Part shown: positions 23,921-38,398 of the stretch, piece by piece
Position numbering within the stretch: position 1 is the stretch's first letter
Layout: every line of letters begins with the position of its first letter
The notes under the pieces: generated by a model
Seen by the model: the letters and a program-made list of their open reading frames with translations, nothing else
Database searches by the model: none
Told to the model about the DNA's origin: nothing
Translations under genes and position numbers: made by a program
Assembly: GCA_031409335.1 (NCBI GenBank)
Contig: JANNWY010000293.1
Span: 20,943 to 84,942 of the forward strand
DNA: 64,000 nt
From: Chthoniobacteraceae bacterium
GTDB taxonomy: Bacteria > Verrucomicrobiota > Verrucomicrobiia > Chthoniobacterales > Chthoniobacteraceae
Reading direction: 5' to 3'

Positions 23921-24151
23921 ATGAAAATTCCCCGCTCCTTCGCAGTCGCTGCGGCGGCCATCCTTTCAGCGGTCGCACCCATCGCCAGCGCGCAGACCTA
24001 TCAAGTTACTGACATAGGTTCACTCACTGGCGCGACCGGATGTGCCACGGCGATCCATGACAATGGCATGATCGCGGGCTGCCCTCAGCCCACCTCGACT
24101 GCCGCGCGGACCGCTACACTCACAAAACAACTAGTACACCACATCCCATGA
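23921..24151 (+). pseudogene. Truncated N-terminus of a secreted HAF-repeat-like protein
   Basis: Signal peptide then QTYQVTDIGSL..ATAIHDNGMIAG (one HAF-like repeat), after which similarity ends. Confidence 0.5.
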
Positions 24152-27100
24152 AAACCTCGAACTTACTCCACGCGACCGGGCTGGTCCGTCGGCTCGGCGC
24201 TCTCATTATCTTTGCGGCCTTGATTGGCTCCGGCGTCCGCGCCGGCGCGCAAGGTTCGTTGCTTTGGTATTCCGGCCCGGGTCTGCCTTCGCCGCGCGCC
24301 GAGGCTGTAGCAGTGCTCGCGCCGGGCGGCTCGGTGCTGCTGATGGGTGGGGTGAGCCCATCCGGTGCGACCATCGTGCCGAAGCTGCTCGACGGAGCCA
24401 CGAGCTGGGTTCCCGGTCACCCGATCGACAGCACGCGCATCGGGCTCGGCGCGGTGCGCTTTGGTGTGAGCGGCATTCTGGTCTTCGGCGGTCGCAACGG
24501 GAACACGCCAACCGATGAGGCGCTGCTCTACGACTACTACTACGGCGACAGCCAGGACGCGGAGAAGATGTCCACGCCGCGGCAAAAATTCGCGTATGCA
24601 GCGGATGGATCGGACCGGTGTTATGCGTTCGGTGGTCTGGGAGAATCCGACCAGGTGTTATCCAGTGCGGAGCGTTACGACTGGGTGCAGGATGCGTGGT
24701 CGGCCATCGCCGCGCTGCCGGCTGCGCGCTACGGGGCCACGGCCGTGAGCGTGGACGGGACGCACATTTATCTTTTCGGCGGCGCGACTTCGACTGCGGT
24801 GCAGGCCACGGCCTGGCGCTACGTCGTCGCTTCCAATTCCTGGCAGACGCTCGCGCCGATGCCGGTGGCAGTGCGCCAAGCCGTGGCCGTCCTCGTCCAG
24901 AACCGCATCTACGTGACCGGCGGCGTCGCTGCGTCTGGCGCGGTGGCCACGGTGCAGGTGTATGACTTGACGACGGGCCTGTGGTCGCTGGACACACCGC
25001 TGCCCGCCGCGCGGTATGCGCATGGCGCGATCTATACTGCCGGGGGAAAAATGCTGGTCTCTGGTGGCTACGACGCGGCCGGCGTCGCCTCGGCGTCCGA
25101 CTTTCAGACCCAGCAACTGAACATCCCCGAGACCGCGCCGATCTTTGACACCGTGCCGGTGACTGTAGGTTCGCTCGACCGCCCGTATGGTTACCTCGCC
25201 GGAGCGCTGGGAAATCCTGCACCCACGTTCTCGCTCGTCACGGGTCCGGCGGGCATGACCATCGCTCCGGCCACTGGTTCCATCGGCTGGCAGCCAGTCG
25301 CGGGACAAGTCGGCGTACATCCGGTGACGGTCCGCGCGACGAACCGCATCGGCTTCGTCAATCAGAGCTTCAACATCACCGTGGTAAGCGACACCATCGC
25401 GCCGAAGGCACCCACCGAGGTCCACGTGGAGGATGTCACTGCGACTTCCGTGACACTCTCGTGGAGCGGAGCGACGGATGCGACGGGCATTCATCACTAC
25501 GCGGTCTATCGTCAATACCGCTGCGGGTTCCGGGGCATCCAGCGGTGCTATGGTATAGTGCAGAATAACATTTCCGGCACGACGACCACTATCACCGGCC
25601 TCCCGCCGCTGACCTCCTATCTGTATACCGTCCGAGCCTTCGATGCCTCCGGCCATTCATCGCCCAATTCGCCACTGGTCTCGTTTAAGACACTCTCGCC
25701 GCCCGTGTCCTTCCGCTACACTGGTGCGACCAGTCTGCCCGCAAACTTCCCGCTACAGCTTCAGTTTTTCGCCAACGCGAATCCAGCAGCCATCTTCTCC
25801 ATCCTCTCCGGTCCCGCGAGCCTCACCGTCGATCCGGTGACGGGTGTTGCGAGTTGGATGCCATCTCCCGCCGATGTCGGAGCGCATACGCTGGTGGTGC
25901 GCGCGACCAATACCGGCGGCACCGCAGACCTTTCCGTGAATCTCACCGTGCGCTCCGACGTGCCCGTGCTCTCCGTGCAGTATGTGCCGGGCGCGGGCGG
26001 ATTGCGCGATGCCATCGCCGGCTCTGCGTGGACCGCGCAGGTGCTCGACGCCAGCCACACGACTTCCACTTATGAAATCGTCGCGGCTCCCCCGGGCATG
26101 ACGATCAACGCAATCACCGGCCAGCTTTCGTGGGTGCCCACGCCGGACGACGCCGGTCTCCGCCCCGTGATGGTCCGCGCCACCAATGCCGCCGCCAGCA
26201 ATGAGATCACCTTCGAGTTCTACGTGCATTTCACCGGGCCGGTTTTGAGTCTGCAAGTTACCGGCCTCACCGACCTTTATCCCACCGCCACATGGACTGC
26301 ACCCATCGGAACCGGCACCGACCGAGTCGCCGGCTACACCGTCCTCGCCACCGCGCGTTATCGCTCCGGTCGAACCTACCGCACGCACCAGGTGAGTTAT
26401 CAAACCGACGCTTCCACCCCGACCGTGACACTCGCCGGCCTGGTCTCCGGACGCACTTACACCTTGTATGTCAACGCCGTGGACGAAACCGACAATCGCG
26501 GCCTCACTAACCCACCTGGCTTAATCTTCATCCCGCGCCCCGGCCTGCCCGTCGTCGGCTGGACCATCGCCAATGCCAACGGCAGCCCCGGCGTCGTGGC
26601 CGGCTACCAAGCCGTGGTGCAATTCACCGAATCTAATCCCGCCTTTGGCCCAGCGACTTTCTCCATCGTCAGCGCCCCCGCCGGATTCGTGCTCAATCCC
26701 ATCACTGGCGAAGGACGCTGGATGCCCTCCACCACGGATGTCGGCGCAATCCCTGTCACCATCCGCGTTACCAACCAAATCGGCCCGCGCGATGTCACCG
26801 TGAACATCCTCGTGAACTTCTCCGGACCCGTGCGCAATCCCATCGCCGCGCGCAATGGCGACAGCGCCGTCGCGAACTGGCAGCCGCCCCTCGACAACAT
26901 TTTCCCAATCGCCAGCTACCGAGTGACGATGCACTGGCAAGTCGGTAGCCGCTCCTATTCGCGCGCGATGACTGCCACCGGCACCAGCCACGCCTTTGGC
27001 CTCGTGCCCACCGGTGCGGTCTGGCACAAAGGCGTCACCATCACCCCGCTCGACGCCACCGGCCGCGTCGGCGTCGCCAGCGCGCTCATCGCCTACAACA

Positions 27101-27354
27101 ATGTGCTGCCCGCTGGCCTCCCGCCCGCCGATCCCGCATGGATTGAGCAAGTCACCATCGCCGCGGACGGGATTCCCGCCGTAGAAGTCCGTGGCCCCGT
27201 CGGTGCCATTGCCGAAGTGGAAGTCTCCAGCGATTTGCTGAACTGGGATCCGCTCGAAACCGTCACCATCGGCGACGATGGAGTCATGCTATGCCCCGAC
27301 TCCGCGAGCCAGAATACGACGCAGAGTTTTTACCGCCTGAACATTCCGCAATAG
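24148..27354 (+). CDS. Secreted Kelch-repeat / putative Ig (He_PIG) / fibronectin III protein
   Basis: About six GG..Y..W Kelch units; several PAGMTI..TG.I.W.P Ig units; FN3 units (VTLSW...YTVRAFD). Confidence 0.85.
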   Translation: MKTSNLLHATGLVRRLGALIIFAALIGSGVRAGAQGSLLWYSGPGLPSPRAEAVAVLAPGGSVLLMGGVSPSGATIVPKLLDGATSWVPGHPIDSTRIGLGAVRFGVSGILVFGGRNGNTPTDEALLYDYYYGDSQDAEKMSTPRQKFAYAADGSDRCYAFGGLGESDQVLSSAERYDWVQDAWSAIAALPAARYGATAVSVDGTHIYLFGGATSTAVQATAWRYVVASNSWQTLAPMPVAVRQAVAVLVQNRIYVTGGVAASGAVATVQVYDLTTGLWSLDTPLPAARYAHGAIYTAGGKMLVSGGYDAAGVASASDFQTQQLNIPETAPIFDTVPVTVGSLDRPYGYLAGALGNPAPTFSLVTGPAGMTIAPATGSIGWQPVAGQVGVHPVTVRATNRIGFVNQSFNITVVSDTIAPKAPTEVHVEDVTATSVTLSWSGATDATGIHHYAVYRQYRCGFRGIQRCYGIVQNNISGTTTTITGLPPLTSYLYTVRAFDASGHSSPNSPLVSFKTLSPPVSFRYTGATSLPANFPLQLQFFANANPAAIFSILSGPASLTVDPVTGVASWMPSPADVGAHTLVVRATNTGGTADLSVNLTVRSDVPVLSVQYVPGAGGLRDAIAGSAWTAQVLDASHTTSTYEIVAAPPGMTINAITGQLSWVPTPDDAGLRPVMVRATNAAASNEITFEFYVHFTGPVLSLQVTGLTDLYPTATWTAPIGTGTDRVAGYTVLATARYRSGRTYRTHQVSYQTDASTPTVTLAGLVSGRTYTLYVNAVDETDNRGLTNPPGLIFIPRPGLPVVGWTIANANGSPGVVAGYQAVVQFTESNPAFGPATFSIVSAPAGFVLNPITGEGRWMPSTTDVGAIPVTIRVTNQIGPRDVTVNILVNFSGPVRNPIAARNGDSAVANWQPPLDNIFPIASYRVTMHWQVGSRSYSRAMTATGTSHAFGLVPTGAVWHKGVTITPLDATGRVGVASALIAYNNVLPAGLPPADPAWIEQVTIAADGIPAVEVRGPVGAIAEVEVSSDLLNWDPLETVTIGDDGVMLCPDSASQNTTQSFYRLNIPQ

Positions 27355-27855
27355 ATGAAATCCGCCGCTCCACAAATGCGCGCCCGGCTTGCCGGATGGC
27401 TGCTCGTGCTGGCTTATGCCTGCACGCTGCCATCGCTGCTGCCGGCAGCGTTTGCGGTACTGGCGCTGGTGGAAGGTTCGCACGGGATCGAGCTGCGGAT
27501 CGGCGGTGAAGAGGTCGCTGTCGTGCTCACGCATCCCGGTGGTGCCGGGAAACCGCACGACGCGATTCATCATCATTGTCTCTTCGCGAAAATGCTCACG
27601 GCCTTCGCGGAGCCGCCGCGCAATGATAACCCGGATCATTTGCTGAAGTTCACCGGAGGCTCAGTTCGCAGTTTGGAAAAGCGGACGGTCGTGCCCGATG
27701 CGCCGCTGAGTTCCGATGCGGCGATGCCTGTGTATTTCATCGTCGCGGAGGTCGCGATTCCGCGTCCGAATTTCGCGTGCGCATGGCCCGAGGGCGCGCC
27801 GCCGCGACCGCCTGCGGAGCTGGTCGAGTTGGCGAGCACGCTGCTGCTCATTTGA
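27355..27855 (+). CDS. His/Cys-rich small membrane protein with C-terminal Pro-Pro motif (DUF2946/CruR-like architecture)
   Basis: N-terminal hydrophobic helix, HDAIHHHC cluster, GAPPRPP near the C-terminus. Confidence 0.55.
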   Translation: MKSAAPQMRARLAGWLLVLAYACTLPSLLPAAFAVLALVEGSHGIELRIGGEEVAVVLTHPGGAGKPHDAIHHHCLFAKMLTAFAEPPRNDNPDHLLKFTGGSVRSLEKRTVVPDAPLSSDAAMPVYFIVAEVAIPRPNFACAWPEGAPPRPPAELVELASTLLLI

Positions 27856-27954
27856 GATAACGCCGCACGGCGAAGCCGAGGCGCGCGGTCACCAGACACG
27901 CGCGGGTTTCGCGGAAGCATGCATGGACAGACACGCCACAGCCGGGCCGTGCCT

Positions 27955-27979
27955 GCGTCCGTTCGCGCGGACGTTTTTT
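27955..27979 (+). terminator. Intrinsic terminator-like hairpin in the leader of the cytochrome gene
   Basis: cgtccg-ttcgcg-cggacg followed by T6. Confidence 0.55.
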
Positions 27980-28011
27980 CCCCGGCGGAAATCTCAAATC
28001 CGATCACCCGC

Positions 28012-30276
28012 ATGAAAACAAAACTTCTCACCACTCTCGCGCTCAGCGCGACGTTCGTCGCCGGCGCGCTCGCCGGCAATGGCCAGCCGACGCTCATCGG
28101 CTGGAACAATCTCGGGATGCATTGCATGGACGACGACTACTCCGTCTTCACCATCCTGCCGCCCTACAACACCGTGGATGCGCACCTCATCGACGCGCAG
28201 GGCAAGCTCGTGAAAACCTCGGCGGGCTGGTCGCTCACCTATGAGGCGGTCGCCGATCTCGATGGCTCGATCAACTCCACGTCCGCGGGAAAATCGAACT
28301 TCTGGGAATTCGCGCCCGCGGCGTATGGCGCGGCGTTGCCGATGGATGCAGGCGTCGCGGGCACCTGGATGCCTGGACTTTCCAACACGCCGCAACCGCT
28401 GACGTGGAGCGGTGCGTTCAATTGGTTCGAGGGCCTCGGCATTCCCATCACGCCGATCGACGACGCGGGCCGTGCCAATTCCTACCCGATGATGCGCCTC
28501 GTCGCGCGGAATGGCACGGGCGCCGTGGTCGCGCAGTCCAACATCGTGCTGCCCGTCTCCGGCGAGATGGATTGCCGCGCCTGCCACGGCTCGAACTCCG
28601 GCCCCGATGCGCAGCCCGCGGGCGGCTGGGTGAACGATCCCATCGCCAAACGCGACTACCGCCTCAACATCCTGCGCCTGCACGATGAGAAGCATCTCGG
28701 CGATCCAGTCTTCCAAAATGCGCTGGCGCTGGTCGGCTTCCGTGCGGACGGCCTCTTCAATACCGTGACGATCGCAAACACGCCGGTCCTTTGCGCGAAG
28801 TGCCACTCGTCCGAAGCGCTCGGCACCGCGAGCACGCCGGGCACCTCATCGCTCACCGCCGCGATGCACGCGAAGCACGCCACGGTCATCAATCCGACGA
28901 ATGGCTTGATCCTGAATGACATCTCCAATCGCAGTGCCTGCTACCAATGCCATCCCGGCTCGACCACACGCTGTCTGCGCGGTGCGATGGGCGCGGCGGT
29001 CGCGACGGATGGTTCGCTGGCGATGCAATGCCAGAGCTGCCACGGCACGATGAGCGATGTCGGTGCGCCGACGCGCACCGGCTGGCTCGACGAGCCCAAC
29101 TGCCAGAACTGTCACACCGGCAGCGCCACGCAAAACAACGGACAAATCCGCTACACCAGCGCCTTCGATGCGCCCGGCCATTTGCGCCAGGCCGTCAGCC
29201 CACTCTTCGCGACGAATCCCGACACGCCACTCCCCGGCAAGTCGCTCTACCGCTTTTCCAAAGGCCACGGCGGCCTGCAATGCAGCGCGTGCCATGGCTC
29301 GACACACGCCGAATTCCCCGCCGCGCATCGCAACGACAACGTGCAAAGCGCGCAGGCCCAGGGCCACATCGGCGTGCTGGCGGAATGCACCGCGTGCCAC
29401 GCCACGATGCCCGCGGCCAACGCGACCAATGCCACCAAGGGTCCGCATGGCATGCACCCGCTCGGCAATAGTTGGGCGAAGAATCACCCCGACATCGCGG
29501 AGTCGGTTGGCGTCGCGCAGTGCCGCGTCTGTCATGGCACGAATGATCGCGGGACCGTGCTGTCGCGCGCTTCCGCCAACCGGACCGTCACCACGGATAA
29601 GTTTGGCGCGAAGGCATTCTGGCGCGGCCAGGAGATCGGCTGCTACGAGTGCCACAGCGGATCGAACAGCTCGAATCCCACGACGCGCACGCGCCCCGCC
29701 GTCGCCAACGGCACGCTCAGCGTCCCCGCTGGCGGCACCGCCTCGCTCACCCTCAGCGCGACCGGCACAGGCTCGACGGTGCGCATCATCCGCCAGCCAA
29801 ATCACGGCACCGTCGCGGTCAGCGGGCGCGTGGCGACTTACTTCGCCGAGGCGGGCTACGGCGGCCCGGACAACTTCGCCTACGCCGCCAGCGATAGCGG
29901 CAGTTATGTCGATTCGACAGCGCCGGGGACCATCTCCGTCACGGTCGGCAATCTCACCGCGACGCTCGACTCCGACGGCGATGGCTTGCCGGACATCGTC
30001 GAGTACGGCCTCGGCACGTCGCCGAACTTTCCCACGGTCAGCGATGCCACGGTGCCGGCCTTCGACGTCTTCAGTGGCCAGCGTTATCTAGCCATGAACC
30101 TAGCGCGCTTCCTGCCGCCGTCCGACATCACGCTCACCGTCGAAGTCTCCGGCGATTTGCAGACCTGGCTACCCGCCACCGTCGTGACGAATTCCGCAAC
30201 CCTCCTCAAAGCCCGCGACACGATTCCCGTTGGCAGCACCGCCACGCGCTTCATCCGACTCAAAGCCAACCGATGA
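28012..30276 (+). CDS. Secreted multiheme (9 CxxCH) cytochrome c with Ig-like and C-terminal sorting-like domains
   Basis: CRACH, CAKCH, CYQCH, CQSCH, CQNCH, CSACH, CTACH, CRVCH, CYECH; signal peptide; GWNNLGMHC N-terminal motif. Confidence 0.9.
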   Translation: MKTKLLTTLALSATFVAGALAGNGQPTLIGWNNLGMHCMDDDYSVFTILPPYNTVDAHLIDAQGKLVKTSAGWSLTYEAVADLDGSINSTSAGKSNFWEFAPAAYGAALPMDAGVAGTWMPGLSNTPQPLTWSGAFNWFEGLGIPITPIDDAGRANSYPMMRLVARNGTGAVVAQSNIVLPVSGEMDCRACHGSNSGPDAQPAGGWVNDPIAKRDYRLNILRLHDEKHLGDPVFQNALALVGFRADGLFNTVTIANTPVLCAKCHSSEALGTASTPGTSSLTAAMHAKHATVINPTNGLILNDISNRSACYQCHPGSTTRCLRGAMGAAVATDGSLAMQCQSCHGTMSDVGAPTRTGWLDEPNCQNCHTGSATQNNGQIRYTSAFDAPGHLRQAVSPLFATNPDTPLPGKSLYRFSKGHGGLQCSACHGSTHAEFPAAHRNDNVQSAQAQGHIGVLAECTACHATMPAANATNATKGPHGMHPLGNSWAKNHPDIAESVGVAQCRVCHGTNDRGTVLSRASANRTVTTDKFGAKAFWRGQEIGCYECHSGSNSSNPTTRTRPAVANGTLSVPAGGTASLTLSATGTGSTVRIIRQPNHGTVAVSGRVATYFAEAGYGGPDNFAYAASDSGSYVDSTAPGTISVTVGNLTATLDSDGDGLPDIVEYGLGTSPNFPTVSDATVPAFDVFSGQRYLAMNLARFLPPSDITLTVEVSGDLQTWLPATVVTNSATLLKARDTIPVGSTATRFIRLKANR

Positions 30277-30349
30277 CTCCCGCGAACCCATGAAACTCCG
30301 CCGCTCCATCACCTTTGCAGTGCTCGGCGGGTCAGGACGAACGCTGCTT

Positions 30350-31774
30350 TTACCGCCTCGCGTATCCGTGAGGTGAGTCCCGGATGCTTGTCGCGTCAGC
30401 CTCGGCGCGCTGGATCGCGGACACTCGCGCGACTCGCAGCGCGACGCGGAATTCCGTCCAGTCCGCCTCGCTGCGCGCGAGGTCGATGCGGCCGCCGTGG
30501 GCGAGCATGATTTCGCGGCACAGGCTGAGGCCGAGCCCGAAACCCATCACCTCGCGGCTGCGCGCCGGGTCGCCGCGGAAGAACCGCTCGAAGATCCGCG
30601 CGCGGTGCTCGGCGCTGAGCCCGGGGCCGGTGTTGCCGATGGTGAGGCAGGCTTCGTCGCCCGCCGCCTTCAATCCGATGCGCACGTGTCCGCCATCGCG
30701 GTTAAATTTCACGGCGTTATCCACGAGATTGAGCAGCACCTGGCGCAGACGGCCGGGATCGGCGAGCACTTTTACCTCGGGGAAAACTTCCGCCTCGATG
30801 GCCAGGCCGCGCGTTTCGCCAAGCAGGCGCGCGTCATCGACGGCGGCGGCGGCGATGCGGCTGAAGTCGGTCGGTTGCAGATCAAGATCGAGTTTTCCCG
30901 CATCCGAGCGCGAGAGCAGGAGCAGGCCATCGACGAGCGAGGACAGGCGGCGCACTTCATCGAGGATCGCGTGAATGCGGGCGACGCGCGCCGCGTCGGT
31001 GGTGCCGGGAAGGAGCGCGGTTTCGAGTTCGGCGCGGAGCACGGCAAGCGGCGTGCGCAGCTCGTGCGAGGCGTCGGAGGTGAAGCGCGCGACTTGCGCG
31101 AAGCTGCCTTCGAGGCGGCCCATCATGCCGTTGAGCACTTCGGTAAGGCGGCGCAATTCGTCCTTTGCCGCAGGCATCGGGAGGCGCGCGTCGAGACTCG
31201 CGGCAGAGATGCCTTCGGCGCGCGTGGCGATTTCCTCGATCGGCTGGAGCGCGCGGCGGGCGATCCACACCGCGCCGAGCGCGAATGCGACGAGCAGGAA
31301 CGGCGCGGCGATGACATAGCTGCGCAGGAGCTGGCGGAGTTTTTCGCGCGGACGCGCCAGGCTCGCGCCGAGCGAAACGGCGAGGCCGTCCGATGCGGCG
31401 GTGGCCTGGCGCACGGCGGTGTCCGCGATTTCCAAAGTGCGCACGGTGCCCGTCGCGGCGGGCTCGGTGACGCGCGGAGAATTCGCGAGCATCGTCGAGC
31501 GATAGACCGGTGTGCCATCATCGCGCACGACTTCGAGATACGGGTGAAAGGGCTCGATCAGCGCGCGCAATTCCACCGGCTCACGTCCGGTCTCCCGCGC
31601 CTCGATCATCCGCCCGAGCACGGAGACGGCCTCGACTTGCAGCTCGCGGTCGAGCGCCTCGACTTCGCCAAAATACAAACTCACCGCGACCACGCAGCCG
31701 AACACGACGAGCGGCAGCGCGAGCATCACCGCCGACCAGACGCCGAGCCTGGTGCGGAGCGGGAGCGGTTTCAT
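30350..31774 (-). CDS. Sensor histidine kinase (HAMP, CusS/CzcS-like)
   Basis: Two TMs, HAMP, FTSDASHELRTPL H-box, NLVDNAVKF, GLGLSL. Confidence 0.92.
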   Translation of the reverse strand: MKPLPLRTRLGVWSAVMLALPLVVFGCVVAVSLYFGEVEALDRELQVEAVSVLGRMIEARETGREPVELRALIEPFHPYLEVVRDDGTPVYRSTMLANSPRVTEPAATGTVRTLEIADTAVRQATAASDGLAVSLGASLARPREKLRQLLRSYVIAAPFLLVAFALGAVWIARRALQPIEEIATRAEGISAASLDARLPMPAAKDELRRLTEVLNGMMGRLEGSFAQVARFTSDASHELRTPLAVLRAELETALLPGTTDAARVARIHAILDEVRRLSSLVDGLLLLSRSDAGKLDLDLQPTDFSRIAAAAVDDARLLGETRGLAIEAEVFPEVKVLADPGRLRQVLLNLVDNAVKFNRDGGHVRIGLKAAGDEACLTIGNTGPGLSAEHRARIFERFFRGDPARSREVMGFGLGLSLCREIMLAHGGRIDLARSEADWTEFRVALRVARVSAIQRAEADATSIRDSPHGYARR

Positions 31775-32445
31775 AGCGGCGGGCCGAAGCGGTAGCCGCT
31801 GCCGGGCACGGTGTGGATGAGCTTTGCGGGAAAGCCATCCTCCAGCTTGCGGCGCACGCGCTTCACGTACTGGTCCACGAGATTCGTCCCCGGATCGAAA
31901 TGGCTGCCCCAGACGTGCTCGATGATGCTCATGCGGCCGAGCACGCGCTCCGGCGAACGGAGGAAAAATTCGAGCAGCTCGAATTCGCGCGGCGACAAAT
32001 CCACCAGCCGCCCGGCGCGCTGCACGTCGCGCGTCAGGAGATTCAGCGTCACGTCGGCGTAATGGAGCACGGTGAGTTTTTCACCCGTCACCCGCCGCAG
32101 CACGGCCTGGAGGCGCACGACGAGTTCGTCGATGGAAAACGGTTTCGGCAAATAATCATCCGCGCCGAGCCGCAGCCCCTCGATGCGTTCATTCACCGAC
32201 CCGCGCGCGGTGAGCAGCACGATGGGCACATTGTTTCCGCCCTCGCGGAGCTGGCGCAAAATGCTGAGTCCGTCGCGTCCCGGCAGCATGATGTCGAGCA
32301 CCGCGGCGGCGTAGGTTTCGGATTGGAGTTTGGCGAAAGCCACGTCGCCATCTTGGACCACCTCGGCCTCGAATTGCGCCGCGCGCAATCCGTTCGCCAC
32401 AAAATCGGCGATCTTTTTTTCGTCTTCGACAACGAGGATGCGCAT
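31771..32445 (-). CDS. OmpR-family response regulator (CusR/CzcR-like)
   Basis: MRILVVED, LDIMLP, GADDYLPKPF, HFDPGTNLVD winged helix. Confidence 0.93.
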   Translation of the reverse strand: MRILVVEDEKKIADFVANGLRAAQFEAEVVQDGDVAFAKLQSETYAAAVLDIMLPGRDGLSILRQLREGGNNVPIVLLTARGSVNERIEGLRLGADDYLPKPFSIDELVVRLQAVLRRVTGEKLTVLHYADVTLNLLTRDVQRAGRLVDLSPREFELLEFFLRSPERVLGRMSIIEHVWGSHFDPGTNLVDQYVKRVRRKLEDGFPAKLIHTVPGSGYRFGPPL

Positions 32446-32581
32446 GGGCAGGGATGCCACCCGTCAGGATGCGGGTTGGAAGGTGAAACTTTGGCGGGAA
32501 GCGCGCATCCGGGGTGGGTGAAGTTTATAGCGTTAAATTTGCGGCGCGCGCCAGCGGAGGTTTGCTGCGTTGCAACATTGT

Positions 32582-32611
32582 TTGACCCCCGCCGCGGGGC
32601 GCGACTAGCTT
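32582..32611 (+). promoter_or_regulatory. Candidate sigma70 promoter (probably near-leaderless) for the phosphoesterase
   Basis: TTGACC-N18-TAGCTT, 7 nt upstream of ATG 32619. Confidence 0.4.
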
Positions 32612-32618
32612 CCGCGCG

Positions 32619-34643
32619 ATGTCCCTTTGTCCAAGTCTTAATCGCAGCCGATCCCTCGTGGCATTCGCGCTGGCATTCGCCTTCACCCCAATATCCGATG
32701 GCGCGAATCCGCCGCCGCCATTCTCGCGCGCGCCCTACCTTCAATTTGCCAGCCCGAATCGAATGCATGTGGTGTGGCGGACGGTGGGGCCGATCGAGCC
32801 AGTCGTGCGGTATGGAAAGGAACTCGGCAATCTCGATCAGGAAGTGCGCGTCGCATCCATCGACGTGCGGTTTTCACCGGGGGCGAAAGATCAAAAAATC
32901 GCGCCCCGGTGGGAGGCATTGCGCACGCCGGAGAATCTCGCCCTGCCAAAGCTGCACTCGGCCCCGGTGGGGACGTTTCAGTACGAGGCAAGGCTCAAGG
33001 ATTTGGAGCCGGACACGACTTATTATTACGCAGTGTATGATGGCGCAAAGCGGCTGACGCCGGAGGATGCGTCCTACCGTTTCGCCACTCATCCCACTCC
33101 CGGCCCGGAGCGTCCGGTGCGCTTCTGGATCATCGGCGATGGCGGCACGGCTCGCGAGCCGCAGGCGGCCGTGCATGAGGCGATGCGCAAGGCGGTGGAG
33201 AGCGAAAAACGGCCGCTCGATTTCTGGCTTCACGTCGGAGACATGGCCTACAACACGGGACGCGATAACGAGTTTCAGACGCGGTTTTTTGAAATGTACG
33301 AGAGCACGCTGCGCAACAAAGTGTGCTGGCCGGCGATGGGAAATCACGAGGGCGGGACATCGAACGGCAAGACGGGGATCGGACCGTACTACGACGCGTA
33401 TGTCGTGCCGACGCGCGGGCAAGCCGGTGGCGTGGCTTCGGGCACGGAGGCGTATTATTCGTTCGACTACGCGAACATCCATTTCATCTGCCTCGATTCG
33501 CACGATCTCAGCCGCAAGCCGGGCGACCCGATGGCGAGCTGGCTGAAGGCGGATTTGGAAAAGGCGAAGTCCGACTGGCTGGTCGCATTCTGGCACCATC
33601 CGCCTTACACCAAAGGCAGCCACGACAGCGATAAGGAGGCCGATCTTACCGAAATGCGCAAACTCATTATGCCGATCATCGAGGCGGGCGGCGTGGACCT
33701 GGTGCTGACGGGGCACTCGCACATTTACGAGCGCTCGATGCTGATGGACGGCGCGTATGCGACGCCCACGGTTTCGGAAAACGTGATCCTCGACGACGGC
33801 GACGGCGACCCCGAAGGCGACGGCGCGTATCGCAAAAGCAAGGGCATCAAGGCGCACGAAGGCACCGTGCAAATCGTCACCGGCAACGCTGGCCAGACGC
33901 TCGGGCGCGTCGGTTCGATGCCGGTGATGCGCCGGATCGTCGTCGAGCACGGCTCGGCGCTGATCGATGTGAAAGGCGACACGCTCACGGGACGGATGAT
34001 CAATCGCGAGGGCGCGGAGTCGGATTTTTTCAGCATCGTGAAGCGCGGCAAAGTCACTGCCGCGCCGCTCCCGCTGCCGTGGATGCCGCCCGAATACAAG
34101 AAGCCCGAAAACGCCCCAAAAGTCGTCGCCGCACCGCCGGCGGACTTCAGCTACGCGGTGCCGCCCGGCGCGGAGTGGAAGTACACGTTCGATCTCCCGA
34201 TTCGCGGGAAGGAGTGGACGCGCGCCGGCTTCGCGGAGGAAGGGTGGAAAACGGGAGCGGCGGGTTTTGGCTACGGTCGCGTGGAGTTTCGCACGGACCT
34301 CCGCGAGATGCGGCGCAAGCACACGGTGCTCTACGCGCGGCGGGAATTTCAAATCGTGCAAGCCGATCGCGTCACGGAAGTCGGTCTGCAAATCGAATTC
34401 GCCGACGCGTTCATCGCCTACATCAACGGTCGTGAAGTGGCCCGCAACGGCGTGAGCCGGGGCAGCGGTCGCAATGCCCAGGGCGTGAAGCCGCGCGAGC
34501 AGAAAGGCAGCGTGTTCATCCCGCTCCCGGACCCGCAAAAATATCTGATCGATGGAACCAACGTCCTTTCCATCGAGGGGCACTCCAGCGCCAGTGACAG
34601 CGTGGAATTCCTGCTGAATCCCGCGCTCATCCTCGAAGACTGA
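32619..34643 (+). CDS. Secreted purple acid phosphatase-like metallophosphoesterase with C-terminal beta-sandwich domain
   Basis: GDGG, GDMAY, GNHE, HHPPY, GHSH motifs; FN3-like N-domain. Confidence 0.9.
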   Translation: MSLCPSLNRSRSLVAFALAFAFTPISDGANPPPPFSRAPYLQFASPNRMHVVWRTVGPIEPVVRYGKELGNLDQEVRVASIDVRFSPGAKDQKIAPRWEALRTPENLALPKLHSAPVGTFQYEARLKDLEPDTTYYYAVYDGAKRLTPEDASYRFATHPTPGPERPVRFWIIGDGGTAREPQAAVHEAMRKAVESEKRPLDFWLHVGDMAYNTGRDNEFQTRFFEMYESTLRNKVCWPAMGNHEGGTSNGKTGIGPYYDAYVVPTRGQAGGVASGTEAYYSFDYANIHFICLDSHDLSRKPGDPMASWLKADLEKAKSDWLVAFWHHPPYTKGSHDSDKEADLTEMRKLIMPIIEAGGVDLVLTGHSHIYERSMLMDGAYATPTVSENVILDDGDGDPEGDGAYRKSKGIKAHEGTVQIVTGNAGQTLGRVGSMPVMRRIVVEHGSALIDVKGDTLTGRMINREGAESDFFSIVKRGKVTAAPLPLPWMPPEYKKPENAPKVVAAPPADFSYAVPPGAEWKYTFDLPIRGKEWTRAGFAEEGWKTGAAGFGYGRVEFRTDLREMRRKHTVLYARREFQIVQADRVTEVGLQIEFADAFIAYINGREVARNGVSRGSGRNAQGVKPREQKGSVFIPLPDPQKYLIDGTNVLSIEGHSSASDSVEFLLNPALILED

Positions 34644-35587
34644 TGCGCACTCCATCTCCACTTTCACGGTTCGCCGCGCTGCTCGTTTGCGCCGCGCCTT
34701 TTTCCGCGAATGCGCACGCGGGTCCCGAGCATGAAATCGAGGAACTTACCGCGCAGATGAAAAAGCACGGCGAATCCGCCGAGTTACTCACCGAGCGCGC
34801 GGTGGAATATCGCGTCATGGGAAAGCTGACGGAAGCGGCGGCCGATCTCGAGCGCGCCGCCACTTACAATGCTGAATCGATCGCGATCCAGCGGGAGCTC
34901 GGGCGCGTCCTTTTGCTCGGTGGAAAATTGAACGAGGCCAACGCCGCCGCCACGCGCGGCCTGGCGATCAAGAGCGACGAGCCCGCCGATCTGGCTTCGT
35001 TGCGGATGCTGCGCGGGGAAATCCACCGCGCCCAAAACGAGAACAAGAAAGCGCTGGAGGATTGCGACGCGGGTCTGCGCCTGCACAAGCAAAACCCGGA
35101 ATGGTACGTCTTCCGCAGCGACATTCAGCGGCGTCTGAAAATGCACACCGAGCGCCTCGCCGGGATTGAAGAAGGGATCAAGGAAACCGGCGCGGGCATT
35201 CTGGAAATCGAGCGCGTCGAGGCATTGATTGAAGCCGGGCAATTTCCGAAAGCGCTGACGCTCATCGATGCCGAGCTGGCGGATTCCCGCATCAAAAGCT
35301 CGTGGCTGATCCGCCGCGCGAAGACCCTGCTCGGGCTCGGCAACAAGACCGAAGCCGAGCAAAATCTGAAATCCGCGCTGGAGGAAATCGACGAACGGCT
35401 GAACCCGAAAACGCCCGATGTCCCGCTCTTGATCGACAAGGGCGTCGCGCTGGAATTGCTCGACAAAAAGTATGAGGCGTTGCGTGCCTACGAAGAGGCG
35501 CGGGACAAAGGGGCGGGGGACATCTTGGGCGACAAGATCAAGTCGCTCCAGGAAGCGGTGCGAGCCATGCCGGTGACAAAACCTTGA
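34643..35587 (+). CDS. Secreted TPR-repeat protein
   Basis: Signal peptide, helical TPR-like repeats, TGATG coupling. Confidence 0.75.
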   Translation: MRTPSPLSRFAALLVCAAPFSANAHAGPEHEIEELTAQMKKHGESAELLTERAVEYRVMGKLTEAAADLERAATYNAESIAIQRELGRVLLLGGKLNEANAAATRGLAIKSDEPADLASLRMLRGEIHRAQNENKKALEDCDAGLRLHKQNPEWYVFRSDIQRRLKMHTERLAGIEEGIKETGAGILEIERVEALIEAGQFPKALTLIDAELADSRIKSSWLIRRAKTLLGLGNKTEAEQNLKSALEEIDERLNPKTPDVPLLIDKGVALELLDKKYEALRAYEEARDKGAGDILGDKIKSLQEAVRAMPVTKP

Positions 35588-36868: not shown

Positions 36869-38398
36869 TCACAAAGTCTTCATGAACTCCACCAGCGACG
36901 CTTTTTCTCCGGCGCCGAGATTCACGCCGTAAGTGTGGCCGCTGTTGCTATCGCCGCGCACGCTCACATCGTGCCGCCAGCCAGTGCGCTCGGCTTCGAG
37001 GCCGGTGGTGATGAAACCGACGTTCACGGGATCGTACACATCGTAGCCGCGGTGGAAGATTTTTGCGCGCTCGGCCACCGGCTTCAGCAGATCGACCAGC
37101 GTCGGCACGGAGCCGTTGTGCAAATAGGGCGCGCGCATCCAGAGTCCGTCGAGCGGCGGCGATTGGTAGGCTTCGATTTTCACCATGTTCGGGCGGTCGA
37201 TACCGAAACTTTTCACGCGCTCATTGGCAATATCGGCGGCCTGCTGGATCCAGGTGTCCATGCGCTCGCGGTCGGTGCCGATCTCGGCGATGGGGATCGG
37301 TTTGTTCGTGCGCGGGCGACCCGGCTCGTGGCATTCCGCGCAGTGCTGATCGTAGATCGGGCGGCCATTTGCGGCGAGTGCAGTGTCGATCGGGAAGGGA
37401 AATTTCGGCGGCCGGAGTTCGCTGAGAAAGTTGTCCACCTCAGCCATGCGATTCTCAAACCACGCGCGGCGTTTCATCCGCCAGTTCATCCAGTCGAGCT
37501 GGCCGCGCACCTCGCCGAGCAAGTCCTGTGGCTGATTTGGGAAGTTGCCGGGCGCAGCGCCGAGGCCGAGCGCGGAGTCGATGATGACGGAGCGCACCGC
37601 GGGCGTGTCGCAGCTCCAGTTGAGGTAAAGCTCCGGGCCTTTGCGGACTTTCAGATTCCAGATCGACGGAAAATCCGCCTGTCCGGTCGTCTCATCCTTG
37701 GCCATCCCGGTCATGAAATATTTGGTGAGATTCATCGGGTCGTCCCGCCCTTTTCCCCACGCCGGCATGTGCGCGCGATCCATCCACGCGAACGCATCTT
37801 TTTGCGCGGCGAGTTCCCGTTTCGCGGCGGGAATGATGACGTGGCGATAGAGCAGGCTGTCCACGAGAGAGAGTCGGATTTCGCTTTCGATCAGCGGCAT
37901 CAGCACGTCGGCGTTGAAGCGCGGATCGTTCGCGCTGCGGTAGAGAAAGCGGATCATGCCCTGGATGTCCGCGGTGTGCGACGCCGCGCCGACGACGACA
38001 TGCGGCGTTTCATCCGGTGCCGCGCGCCACGAGCCGGTATGGCAGATCGCGCAGTTGTTCGCGACGCGTGGAAAACCCACCGTTTTTTTGGAGAAGCCGG
38101 ACGGCAATTCCTTTCCCTCCTCCCATACGAGGCCGAACGACTGATAGCCGCCGGAGCCGGGCAGGAGGTCGGGAAACACGCGCGGCAGCACGACCCAGAT
38201 CCAATACGGAATCCCGCGATTCGTTTCCGCGCCGATCGAGCCGTATTTGAAACGCTCGGCCTCGTTTTCAAATGGCGGCTGGTCCACTTCACGGAAAAAT
38301 TTCAGCCAGCCAAACCACCCGCCAAACAGCGCGAGCAGGAGGAAGACGGCGAGGAAGAAGCGGAGCTTTCTGTGTTTGCGCTTCGGTTTGGTGCTCAT
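36869..38398 (-). CDS. RoxA/MauG-like diheme cytochrome c, membrane-anchored
   Basis: CAICH, CAECH, WMRAPYLHNGSVPT, SNSGH; N-terminal TM. Confidence 0.85.
   Translation of the reverse strand: MSTKPKRKHRKLRFFLAVFLLLALFGGWFGWLKFFREVDQPPFENEAERFKYGSIGAETNRGIPYWIWVVLPRVFPDLLPGSGGYQSFGLVWEEGKELPSGFSKKTVGFPRVANNCAICHTGSWRAAPDETPHVVVGAASHTADIQGMIRFLYRSANDPRFNADVLMPLIESEIRLSLVDSLLYRHVIIPAAKRELAAQKDAFAWMDRAHMPAWGKGRDDPMNLTKYFMTGMAKDETTGQADFPSIWNLKVRKGPELYLNWSCDTPAVRSVIIDSALGLGAAPGNFPNQPQDLLGEVRGQLDWMNWRMKRRAWFENRMAEVDNFLSELRPPKFPFPIDTALAANGRPIYDQHCAECHEPGRPRTNKPIPIAEIGTDRERMDTWIQQAADIANERVKSFGIDRPNMVKIEAYQSPPLDGLWMRAPYLHNGSVPTLVDLLKPVAERAKIFHRGYDVYDPVNVGFITTGLEAERTGWRHDVSVRGDSNSGHTYGVNLGAGEKASLVEFMKTL

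Follow-up and report, generated by a model that had tools for sequence, protein, structure and literature searches.

What does a small open reading frame (ORF) directly ahead of a multiheme cytochrome gene do, and if it controls its neighbor, at which step of translation would it act? The ORF lies in a 64,000-nucleotide (nt) stretch of a Chthoniobacteraceae genome (contig JANNWY010000293.1, positions 20,943 to 84,942), which we call the window and in whose numbering all coordinates are given. It encodes a 166-amino-acid (aa) peptide, here called the leader, and is followed on the same strand by the gene for an exported nonaheme cytochrome. The original prediction had seen in it a DUF2946-like metal-sensing peptide that arrests ribosomes at a RAPP-type Pro-Pro motif. 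We arrive at a different proposal, to which we give slightly less than an even chance: the leader acts in cis as a metal sensor, and ribosome pausing at its UGA stop codon sets the expression of the next gene, here the cytochrome. The comparative evidence makes it quite likely that the leader is a cis-acting exported metal sensor and, given such a sensor, makes termination at UGA the moderately likely controlled step. The most specific form of the proposal, in which a five-His/one-Asp exported leader reads a periplasmic divalent metal across the membrane by blocking release factor 2 (RF2) at a UGA 70 residues away, is put forward more tentatively. The parts of the leader on which the argument rests are as follows.

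27355..27855, + strand: leader ORF, 166 aa (homologs and family profile)
27382..27474, + strand: hydrophobic export/anchor segment, residues about 10-40 (hydropathy and predicted helices)
27481..27651, + strand: small predicted beta-beta-alpha-beta domain with a putative divalent-metal site, H43/H60/H72/H74/D94/H95 (conservation and structure model)
27652..27792, + strand: variable low-structure linker of conserved length, a possible ruler (mean majority fraction 0.20)
27793..27813, + strand: GAPPRPP, residues 147-153, a common yet dispensable Pro-Pro, not RAPP (family counts)
27829..27855, + strand: conserved C-terminal octapeptide and UGA, the proposed arrest point (most conserved segment, 0.70; UGA at 75/75 loci)

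The leader ORF is a genuine gene and belongs to a large family, although no Pfam or NCBIfam model matches it at E ≤ 1. The initial search returned 11 proteins of the family, the ORF itself counted, and a profile built from 15 homologs retrieved 670 clusters (50% identity) at E ≤ 1e-3, numbers that place the ORF beyond chance. The best 150 of these 670 clusters, which we refer to as representatives, typically encode proteins of 155-180 aa. Homologs P0004-P0008 support a start at M1, while the database annotation begins at M8 (27376) and gives 159 aa. The Atlas clusters that match the leader are all unnamed except for DUF6769, which appears in 33% of one cluster; together with labelled cytochrome homologs, these clusters indicate Verrucomicrobiota as the host group. 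By genome, the leader family occurs in 17/151 of the organism's own taxonomic family, in 12/36 and 41/81 of two other families, in 13/401 of the class and in 5/401 of the phylum (the own genome being counted where the tool says so). A search of 151 genomes of the phylum of genome G658 yielded just three marginal matches (L280, L285 and L286; E 0.002-0.008), and the one inspected, L280, is an off-frame match over another gene. Similarly, pattern scans for related loci gave 139 genome and 384 metagenome-contig matches, none of which was confirmed as a relative.

The amino-terminal part of the leader holds the hydrophobic segment and the putative metal site. The 166-aa frame, its N-terminal hydrophobic helix and its seven His residues (43, 60, 68, 72, 73, 74 and 95, with HDAIHHHC among them) are all present as first reported. 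Hydropathy peaks at 1.86 over residues about 10-40, with helices predicted at 6-22 and 28-40; the hydrophobic segment is long and may remain uncleaved as an anchor. Six residues are nearly invariant among the 150 representatives: H43 in 149, H60 in 150, H72 in 144, H74 in 149, D94 in 150 and H95 in 149, with F99 kept in 140. These putative ligands are spread over a domain and not restricted to HDAIHHHC, in which H68 (23), H73 (39) and C75 (30) are not conserved. CxxC occurs anywhere in only 5/150 representatives and is absent from the window ORF; family conservation and homolog labels therefore bear out a His-based, non-CxxC exported leader family in Verrucomicrobia. An AlphaFold model (mean predicted local distance difference test score, pLDDT, 79; near 90 in the strands) begins with two helices, followed by a beta-hairpin flanked by H43 and H60, a helix, a third strand from D94-H95 and a low-structure linker, and from it we infer that the His/Asp ligands cluster in space. 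Compared with the PDB, the His domain gave no Foldseek match at E ≤ 0.001, and the best structural similarity was to designed proteins (Z 6.0, root-mean-square deviation 3.0 over 64 aligned residues).

The other end of the leader is its most conserved part. The mean majority fraction is 0.70 for the last eight residues, compared to 0.44 for the His domain and 0.20 for the linker between them. The linker varies in sequence and keeps its length: the distance from H95 to the C-terminus has a median of 70 aa with a standard deviation of 2.5 (n=141). The octapeptide reads L-R-S-T-V-L-L-I in the family and LASTLLLI in the window. To examine the stop codon, we used the DNA of 75 distinct loci, the window among them (46+27+2, duplicates removed), with 11 genome matches that carried no DNA outside this set. 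The stop is UGA at all 75 loci, which form 33 clusters at 40% identity; the loci are related by descent, and the count therefore overstates their independence. By comparison, UGA ends 9/20 cytochrome homologs, 9/12 CzcA genes, 74/137 of the remaining long genes in the 32 larger loci, and 1374/2687 genes of the organism's own genome (709/1155 after a pyrimidine). Cys is the last residue before UGA in 17/73 members, and thus UGA is kept independently of the last codon.

These Cys-UGA leaders (L257, L259, L262-L264, L266-L277) form a subfamily that ends mostly in V-L/I-R-C, largely lacks Pro-Pro and has an outer-membrane factor (OEP) gene next wherever the downstream gene is readable. The last leader codon ends in a pyrimidine in 72/73 leaders; ATT is used 25 times and ATC 18, whereas the genome favors ATC about 5 to 1.

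The Pro-Pro motif, by contrast with UGA, is common and dispensable. GAPPRPP does stand near the end of the window leader, at residues 147-153, but 13 residues follow it and not the 15 first counted, so that P152-P153 of 166 fall inside the last 15 residues. In the statistics on C-termini we used the 140 representatives with an intact end, a pattern filter having removed 10 that were truncated or aberrant. Pro-Pro lies within the last 30 aa in 109/140 representatives and 43/75 loci, mostly 13-16 aa from the end and often just beyond 15, and is missing in 32/75 loci. RxPP is found in 38/140 representatives, RAPP in 1/140 and RGPP in 0/140, and neither RAPP nor RGPP in any of the 75 loci. H95 lies 54±3 aa from the last Pro-Pro, and the median distance from H95 to the end is also 70 aa in the 32 members without one. 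The window motif reads G-A-P-P/P-R-P-P, with no Arg at the RAPP position, and a RAPP-type arrest is not supported. Membership in DUF2946 (PF11162) fares no better: the ORF has no match at E ≤ 1, none of the 132 family members that we aligned (the window ORF, 6 near homologs and 125 representatives, most of them full-length) matches at E ≤ 0.1, and a scan of the organism's own genome does not list the locus.

Judged by the neighboring genes, the main target of the family is an efflux pump, through the outer-membrane factor of a CzcA-type pump. Searching 1.5 kb 3' of each leader by tblastn, we found OEP at 47 of the 75 loci, CzcA at 2, secreted InlB-repeat families at 6 + 6, a cytochrome at 3, single cases at 2, other genes at 6, and too short a sequence at 3. 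The expected position upstream of metal or redox genes is thereby borne out, but the suggestion that the family gates a cytochrome rather than a transporter is not: a cytochrome is the first gene after the leader in only 2/75 loci (the window and L010), and the second gene in L223 and L287. All three RND partners tested pass TIGR00914, and 10/11 RNDs carry D-F-G-x3-D-G-A-x3-V-E-N, which we take to be the signature of the divalent type.

The loci show further variety. CzcA-type RND genes come right after the outer-membrane factor, with no membrane-fusion gene between, in L013, L031, L033, L036, L037 and L040, and an RcnA-type nickel/cobalt efflux gene lies between OEP and RND in L034 (4546-5697). 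The second main class of targets comprises two N-terminal domains of large secreted InlB-repeat proteins (L011, L029, L074, L201, L203, L212-L214, L219, L221, L260), and no Pfam or NCBIfam match covers these domains in the members scanned. A leader also heads an operon with an 11-heme cytochrome in L289 and a pair of cytochrome c and flavocytochrome c sulfide dehydrogenase genes in L300 (5205-6856). The leader and cytochrome of L010 (1-14001) lie within a cluster for hydrogenase maturation (Pfam identifies HypD and HypC, and a HypE-like gene is present), next to genes for a large oxidoreductase and a dihydroorotate-dehydrogenase-like protein; this context may be a link to nickel. Some loci have apparently decayed: the leader of L205 runs into the tail of czcA, and L032 and L218 have no obvious target within 400 nt.

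A paused ribosome could act on the next gene through the RNA between the two, in which we find the following elements.

27850..27864, + strand: 5' arm of a long-range helix that is predicted to include the stop codon (27850-27858 pair with probability 0.7-1.0)
27859-27869 with 27964-27975, + strand: alternative antiterminator pairing in this strain (folding)
27870..27912, + strand: hairpin 1, then an invariant GCGGAAG (compensatory changes; also kept in sequencing runs X5 and X6)
27930..27954, + strand: hairpin 2, weak in the window and conserved in the subfamily (alignment and covariation)
27955..27979, + strand: hairpin 3 and T6, a putative terminator with an unconserved T-tail (folding and alignment)
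27984..27999, + strand: 3' arm in the long-range helix; the cytochrome ATG follows 13 nt after its end (folding; similar pairing in L010 and L011)

The distance from leader to next gene is 156 nt in the window and has a median of 137 nt among the 36 loci with a curated start, which we also used for the costs of opening the start region. In the subfamily of 8 related intergenic regions, the window's included, 8/18 pairs of the three helices show double changes, a number reached in 0/500 shuffles and compared with ≤3 in slid controls, although the structure was taken from the same alignment of related sequences. Across the whole family, a strong hairpin follows the leader stop (mean -20.1 versus -14.0 kcal/mol in background, 72 versus 110 regions) and is more stable than background in every folding context. 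It begins 7-15 nt past the stop in 40% of regions compared to 18% of background (73 versus 425 regions), and is followed by a pyrimidine-rich tail in 49% versus 19%. A family-wide switch of hairpin 1 through pairing with the coding end was looked for and not found. Folding z-scores of the whole region are unremarkable (-0.26 and -0.47), and the Rfam 15 covariance models give no match in the leader region, with one chance match (E 4.8) outside it. DNA pattern scans for hairpin 1 returned 12 and 119 stretches, of which only L074 has a leader, the others being chance.

GCGGAAG (27911-27917) is present in 8/8 subfamily regions and resembles the 5' arm of hairpin 1; it could compete for the 3' arm of that hairpin, or bind a protein. 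No sigma-70 promoter consensus was found in 26000-33500. Many leader loci (for example L029, L037, L225-L228 and L282) have a TTGAC/TTGCG hexamer about 35 nt 5' of the ATG, seen by eye and uncounted, which is absent in the window and suggests nearly leaderless transcripts.

The predicted long-range helix would connect the leader's stop to the cytochrome's start. Positions 27850-27858 are exactly complementary to 27991-27999, and they pair with a probability of 0.7-1.0 when folding begins at 27811 or 27835, but not from 27780. Similar pairing between stop and pre-start regions reaches -11.6 kcal/mol in L010 and -13.4 kcal/mol in L011, and over the family each locus's own stop and start windows pair slightly better than crossed ones (mean -9.2 versus -8.1 kcal/mol, p=0.0036). 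When the part covered by a ribosome is removed, the cost of opening the start region falls from 11.3 to 6.6 kcal/mol in the window and from 14.8 to 4.4 in L010, with an average drop of 2.0 kcal/mol over the 36 loci. A ribosome on UGA would cover the 5' arm of this helix and one at the prolines would not; given the size of the ribosome footprint, a ribosome paused there would leave about 25 nt between its edge and the helix. No Shine-Dalgarno sequence was seen ahead of the cytochrome, and no 16S 3' end for comparison was found in the assembly.

These observations can be assembled into a mechanism. The nascent chain would be routed through Sec by its N-terminal helix, and the 70 residues after H95 would span the exit tunnel and translocon, such that the His/Asp domain would be outside the membrane exactly as UGA enters the A site. 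The C-terminal residues would delay release by RF2, as those of TnaC and PepNL do, and binding of a divalent metal would alter the dwell time. Zn, Co, Ni or Cd are the candidates because the neighbors are of CzcA and RcnA type, and it is solely because the targets are efflux genes that we infer a metal-on direction. In the window, a ribosome dwelling on UGA would cover 27850-27864, open the helix that masks 27984-27999 and free the cytochrome start; elsewhere in the family the paused ribosome may block Rho instead. The metal, the direction and the output (unmasking, Rho or intrinsic termination) may differ between loci.

Several observations weigh against pausing at UGA as we propose it. Both the stalling and the metal binding of the leader are predictions. 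The window has Ala at position -7, where 115/148 members have Arg, and Pro-Pro is after all still kept in most representatives. Background stop/start pairs are stronger in absolute terms (-12.2 kcal/mol) than those of the family, the long-range helix is not universal (crossed pairs are as strong or stronger in 94% of cases for L074 and 66% for L201), and the cost of opening drops by more than 1 kcal/mol in just 20/36 loci. Occupation of UGA by a ribosome also favors hairpin 3 and T6 in this strain (p 0.98), which would turn transcription off and thus has the opposite sign. The variant with Rho is weak in the window because its intergenic region lacks the bias toward pyrimidines and C that is seen across the family; Rho itself is encoded in the genome. 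Finally, there is no gap between the leader and the gene upstream.

Pausing might instead occur in elongation. In this alternative, which follows the original prediction and which we consider unlikely, a CutF-type pause at the Pro-Pro is combined with a trp-like intrinsic attenuator: a pause at P149-P153 would leave 27859-27869 free for the 3' arm of hairpin 3 and allow read-through, and a ribosome at UGA would cover that arm and allow the terminator to form. The frequency and position of Pro-Pro among the representatives, 38 of which have RxPP, favor this, as does the precedent of CutF, whose pause site is a PPP and not a RAPP. Folding agrees as well: with the transcript ending at 27980, hairpin 3 has a probability of ≤0.01 for a first free base anywhere in 27790-27860, compared to 0.8-1.0 for one at ≤27780 or ≥27865. 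Nevertheless, at the 32/75 loci without Pro-Pro the spacing from His to the end is unchanged, and the antiterminator is favored by only 3 kcal/mol, an edge that 27/120 shuffles of the arm (22.5%) equal, with no clear switch in L010, L074 or L212. The terminator-like site is present as first described: hairpin 3 (27955-27974) has -11.7 kcal/mol, with T6 at 27974-27979. However, hairpin 3 varies, and a T-tail is kept in 1/8 subfamily regions, that of the window. L010, the sole other locus in which leader and cytochrome are direct neighbors, has none, and a role of the terminator as the family's attenuator is not supported. Moreover, 10 terminator-like sites occur in 7.5 kb compared to 6.0±3.1 in shuffles, so that hairpin 3 and T6 alone are not beyond chance.

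A protein that acts in trans, as a membrane-anchored or periplasmic metal-binding buffer, chaperone or CzcI-like modulator, is somewhat less probable still. The confidently predicted fold fits such a protein, the family's place as first gene of efflux operons recalls czcI, and non-polar C-termini are protease signals, so that the hydrophobic end could be a tag for a protease or partner and the hairpin could merely stabilize or trim the mRNA. Left unexplained would be the invariant UGA, the variable linker of kept length and the long structured intergenic region before several unrelated types of target. A monitor of secretion or folding like SecM or VemP, reporting translocation force with the His domain as a structural metal site that supplies a folding pull, has about as small a chance, or one slightly smaller. 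Nearly all first downstream genes do encode exported proteins (OEP, InlB-repeat, cytochrome) and the second target class has no known role with metals, but no sec or yidC neighbors were seen, heavy-metal RND systems dominate among the targets (one locus also has an RcnA-type gene), and the six ligands are nearly invariant. Least probable by far is recoding of UGA, by selenocysteine or by Trp read-through, to fuse the leader to the downstream protein. The invariant UGA with a hairpin just 3' invites this idea, in the window and L011 no further stop interrupts the frame before the next gene, which lies in the same phase, and the UGA of PepNL is read through (PMC11890864). Lengths of the intergenic region modulo 3 are nonetheless distributed as 14/10/12 over the 36 loci, L010 is out of frame, and neither SelA nor tRNA-Sec was found in this 98%-complete genome, making selenocysteine unlikely. 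A conserved read-through fusion was therefore rejected on the spread over all three frames; read-through as a release valve, with no fusion, is possible.

The cytochrome and the other neighbors of the leader are the following genes.

24148..27354, + strand: exported kelch/fn3/Ig protein gene, upstream of the leader (library matches; its stop abuts the leader ATG)
28012..30276, + strand: c-type cytochrome of 754 aa with nine hemes and an export signal; it contains an Ig-like domain (Big_9) and ends in a domain of F-x-R-L type (9 CxxCH, library matches)
30350..31774, - strand: HAMP-HisKA-HATPase sensor kinase (library matches; below the heavy-metal family cut-off)
31771..32445, - strand: OmpR/PhoB-type response regulator (library matches)

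The cytochrome indeed has nine hemes' worth of CxxCH motifs in its 754 aa, as first noted; 5692 homologs were found among 8000 candidates scored, and it is 79% identical to a Chthoniobacter sp. protein. It has no sequence match in the PDB, and its last 148 aa have no NCBIfam match. The protein carries an export signal and maturation genes are present in the genome; it may lie at the cell surface, and no porin gene is adjacent. Extracellular multiheme cytochromes have been proposed for freshwater Verrucomicrobia (PMC5615132). We compared 26 cytochrome loci, of which 22 have a usable upstream region (dropped were L056, which duplicates L066, the internal fragments L060 and L064, and L063, with 304 nt). 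A leader precedes the cytochrome in 2/22 and is absent in 20/22, the closest homolog (87%) being among those without. The two-component genes are convergent with the cytochrome gene as described, and heavy-metal models are their top matches, but the scores fall below the cut-offs (TIGR01386/TIGR01387: 252.6 < 292.55 and 206.3 < 279.2), and thus a CusRS/CzcRS-like assignment stands only as a resemblance. The sensor region of the kinase (residues 31-150) has 1 His, 2 Met and 0 Cys. In 4/18 loci the cytochrome has a related pair of regulator and kinase genes immediately upstream, and for 3/4 of those kinases the window kinase is the best match in its own genome. Since the pair travels with the cytochrome and the leader is rare there, we assign the pair to the cytochrome and regard the leader as an addition at some loci.

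The leader ATG directly adjoins the stop (27354) of the kelch/fn3 gene, a junction also present in one relative (sequencing run X5), and the two are possibly co-transcribed. The kelch/fn3 protein and the cytochrome share an F/Y-x-R-L-type ending (27340-27354 and 30250-30276), which is found on 126/3074 long ORFs of the genome and on most secreted targets of the leader family and looks like a Verrucomicrobia C-terminal sorting domain. Farther along the window are purple-acid-phosphatase-like and TPR genes (32619-35587 and 36869-38398), with a gene for a RoxA-like cytochrome c nearby.

Our literature searches, which are far from complete for subscription papers, found no publication on the leader family or its C-terminal motif; in the literature searched, survey supplements (Fig. 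S6, File S1) excepted, we did not find the leader family, the octapeptide with invariant UGA or a cytochrome target. Both metal-sensing leaders tested to date, CutF and CruR, are Cu/Cys proteins that pause on prolines in elongation, and surveys found their relatives by demanding Pro-Pro or RAPP near the end, filters that would largely miss the window family. That family suggests that a sensor can rely on His alone and arrest the ribosome at another point, and it ties a widespread nonaheme cytochrome and two families of secreted proteins to a probable metal regulon in Verrucomicrobia. If pausing at UGA is correct, it would join the trans-membrane sensing of CutF and SecM to the termination arrest of TnaC and PepNL, in a portable switch that one bacterial class has reused for multiheme cytochromes and a sulfide dehydrogenase as well as for CzcA pumps and large secreted proteins.

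Our evidence supports the view that the family works like CutF or CruR. CutF of Rhodobacter capsulatus and a rule-based CutF-like class (10.1101/2022.11.11.516240 = PMC9973294; 10.1101/2025.02.05.636593) share with the window family a small exported upstream ORF with a metal motif, a place first in the operon, a structured intergenic region and a proposed unmasking of the next start. OEP/RND is the commonest neighbor of the CutF-like class, in which the His-only clusters 14 and 17 already exist, and a His-based leader is therefore not new by itself (10.1101/2022.11.11.516240). Those His-only clusters sit before HupE/UreJ, unlike the window family, and "Verrucomicrob" has 0 occurrences in the main text of that survey (10.1101/2022.11.11.516240). 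Under the rules of the class, the leader (166 aa, or 159 from M8) exceeds the limit of <150 aa; it has Pro-Pro in the last 15 residues and a same-strand downstream gene within 1000 nt, usually one of metal homeostasis. It also differs from CutF in having no CxxxC, a folded His/Asp domain and a conserved terminal octapeptide with UGA, in a spacing of 70 aa compared to 45 aa, and in that the PPP of CutF lies 2 aa from the end whereas the Pro-Pro of the window family is dispensable and lies 13-16 aa from it.

CruR of Bordetella pertussis (DUF2946/PF11162; PMC9426467), for which arrest has been shown (PMC12992588), is likewise an upstream ORF with an export signal, a fixed spacing from motif to arrest and a long intergenic region (162 nt versus 156 nt in the window) before a same-strand gene; in both CruR and CutF a fixed distance joins metal motif and arrest site (PMC9426467; 10.1101/2022.11.11.516240). 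CruR arrests during elongation, and Cu turns an importer off; the window leader has no PF11162 match, no CxxC and no RAPP, the DUF2946 trait of a C-terminal RAPP about 45 aa past the metal motif being absent. The arrest peptides ApdA and ApdP also have Pro-Pro near the C-terminus of an exported leader but require Arg at the first position of RAPP/RGPP (PMC10951233), where the window has Gly (GAPP). CzcI of Cupriavidus metallidurans, as described in the Discussion of 10.1101/2022.11.11.516240, is a further system with which the family is compared.

The proposed controlled step has its closest parallels elsewhere, and no sequence relation is claimed. TnaC is reportedly a termination-arrest peptide whose RF2-dependent release is the controlled step. 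PepNL similarly arrests at termination on UGA, with release dependent on RF2 (PMC11890864). These are cytoplasmic peptides of 14-24 aa that act in the tunnel, whereas the window leader is an exported protein of 166 aa with an extracytoplasmic domain; like them, its family has conserved residues up to the UGA stop, and RF2-dependent termination is the step that we propose to be controlled.

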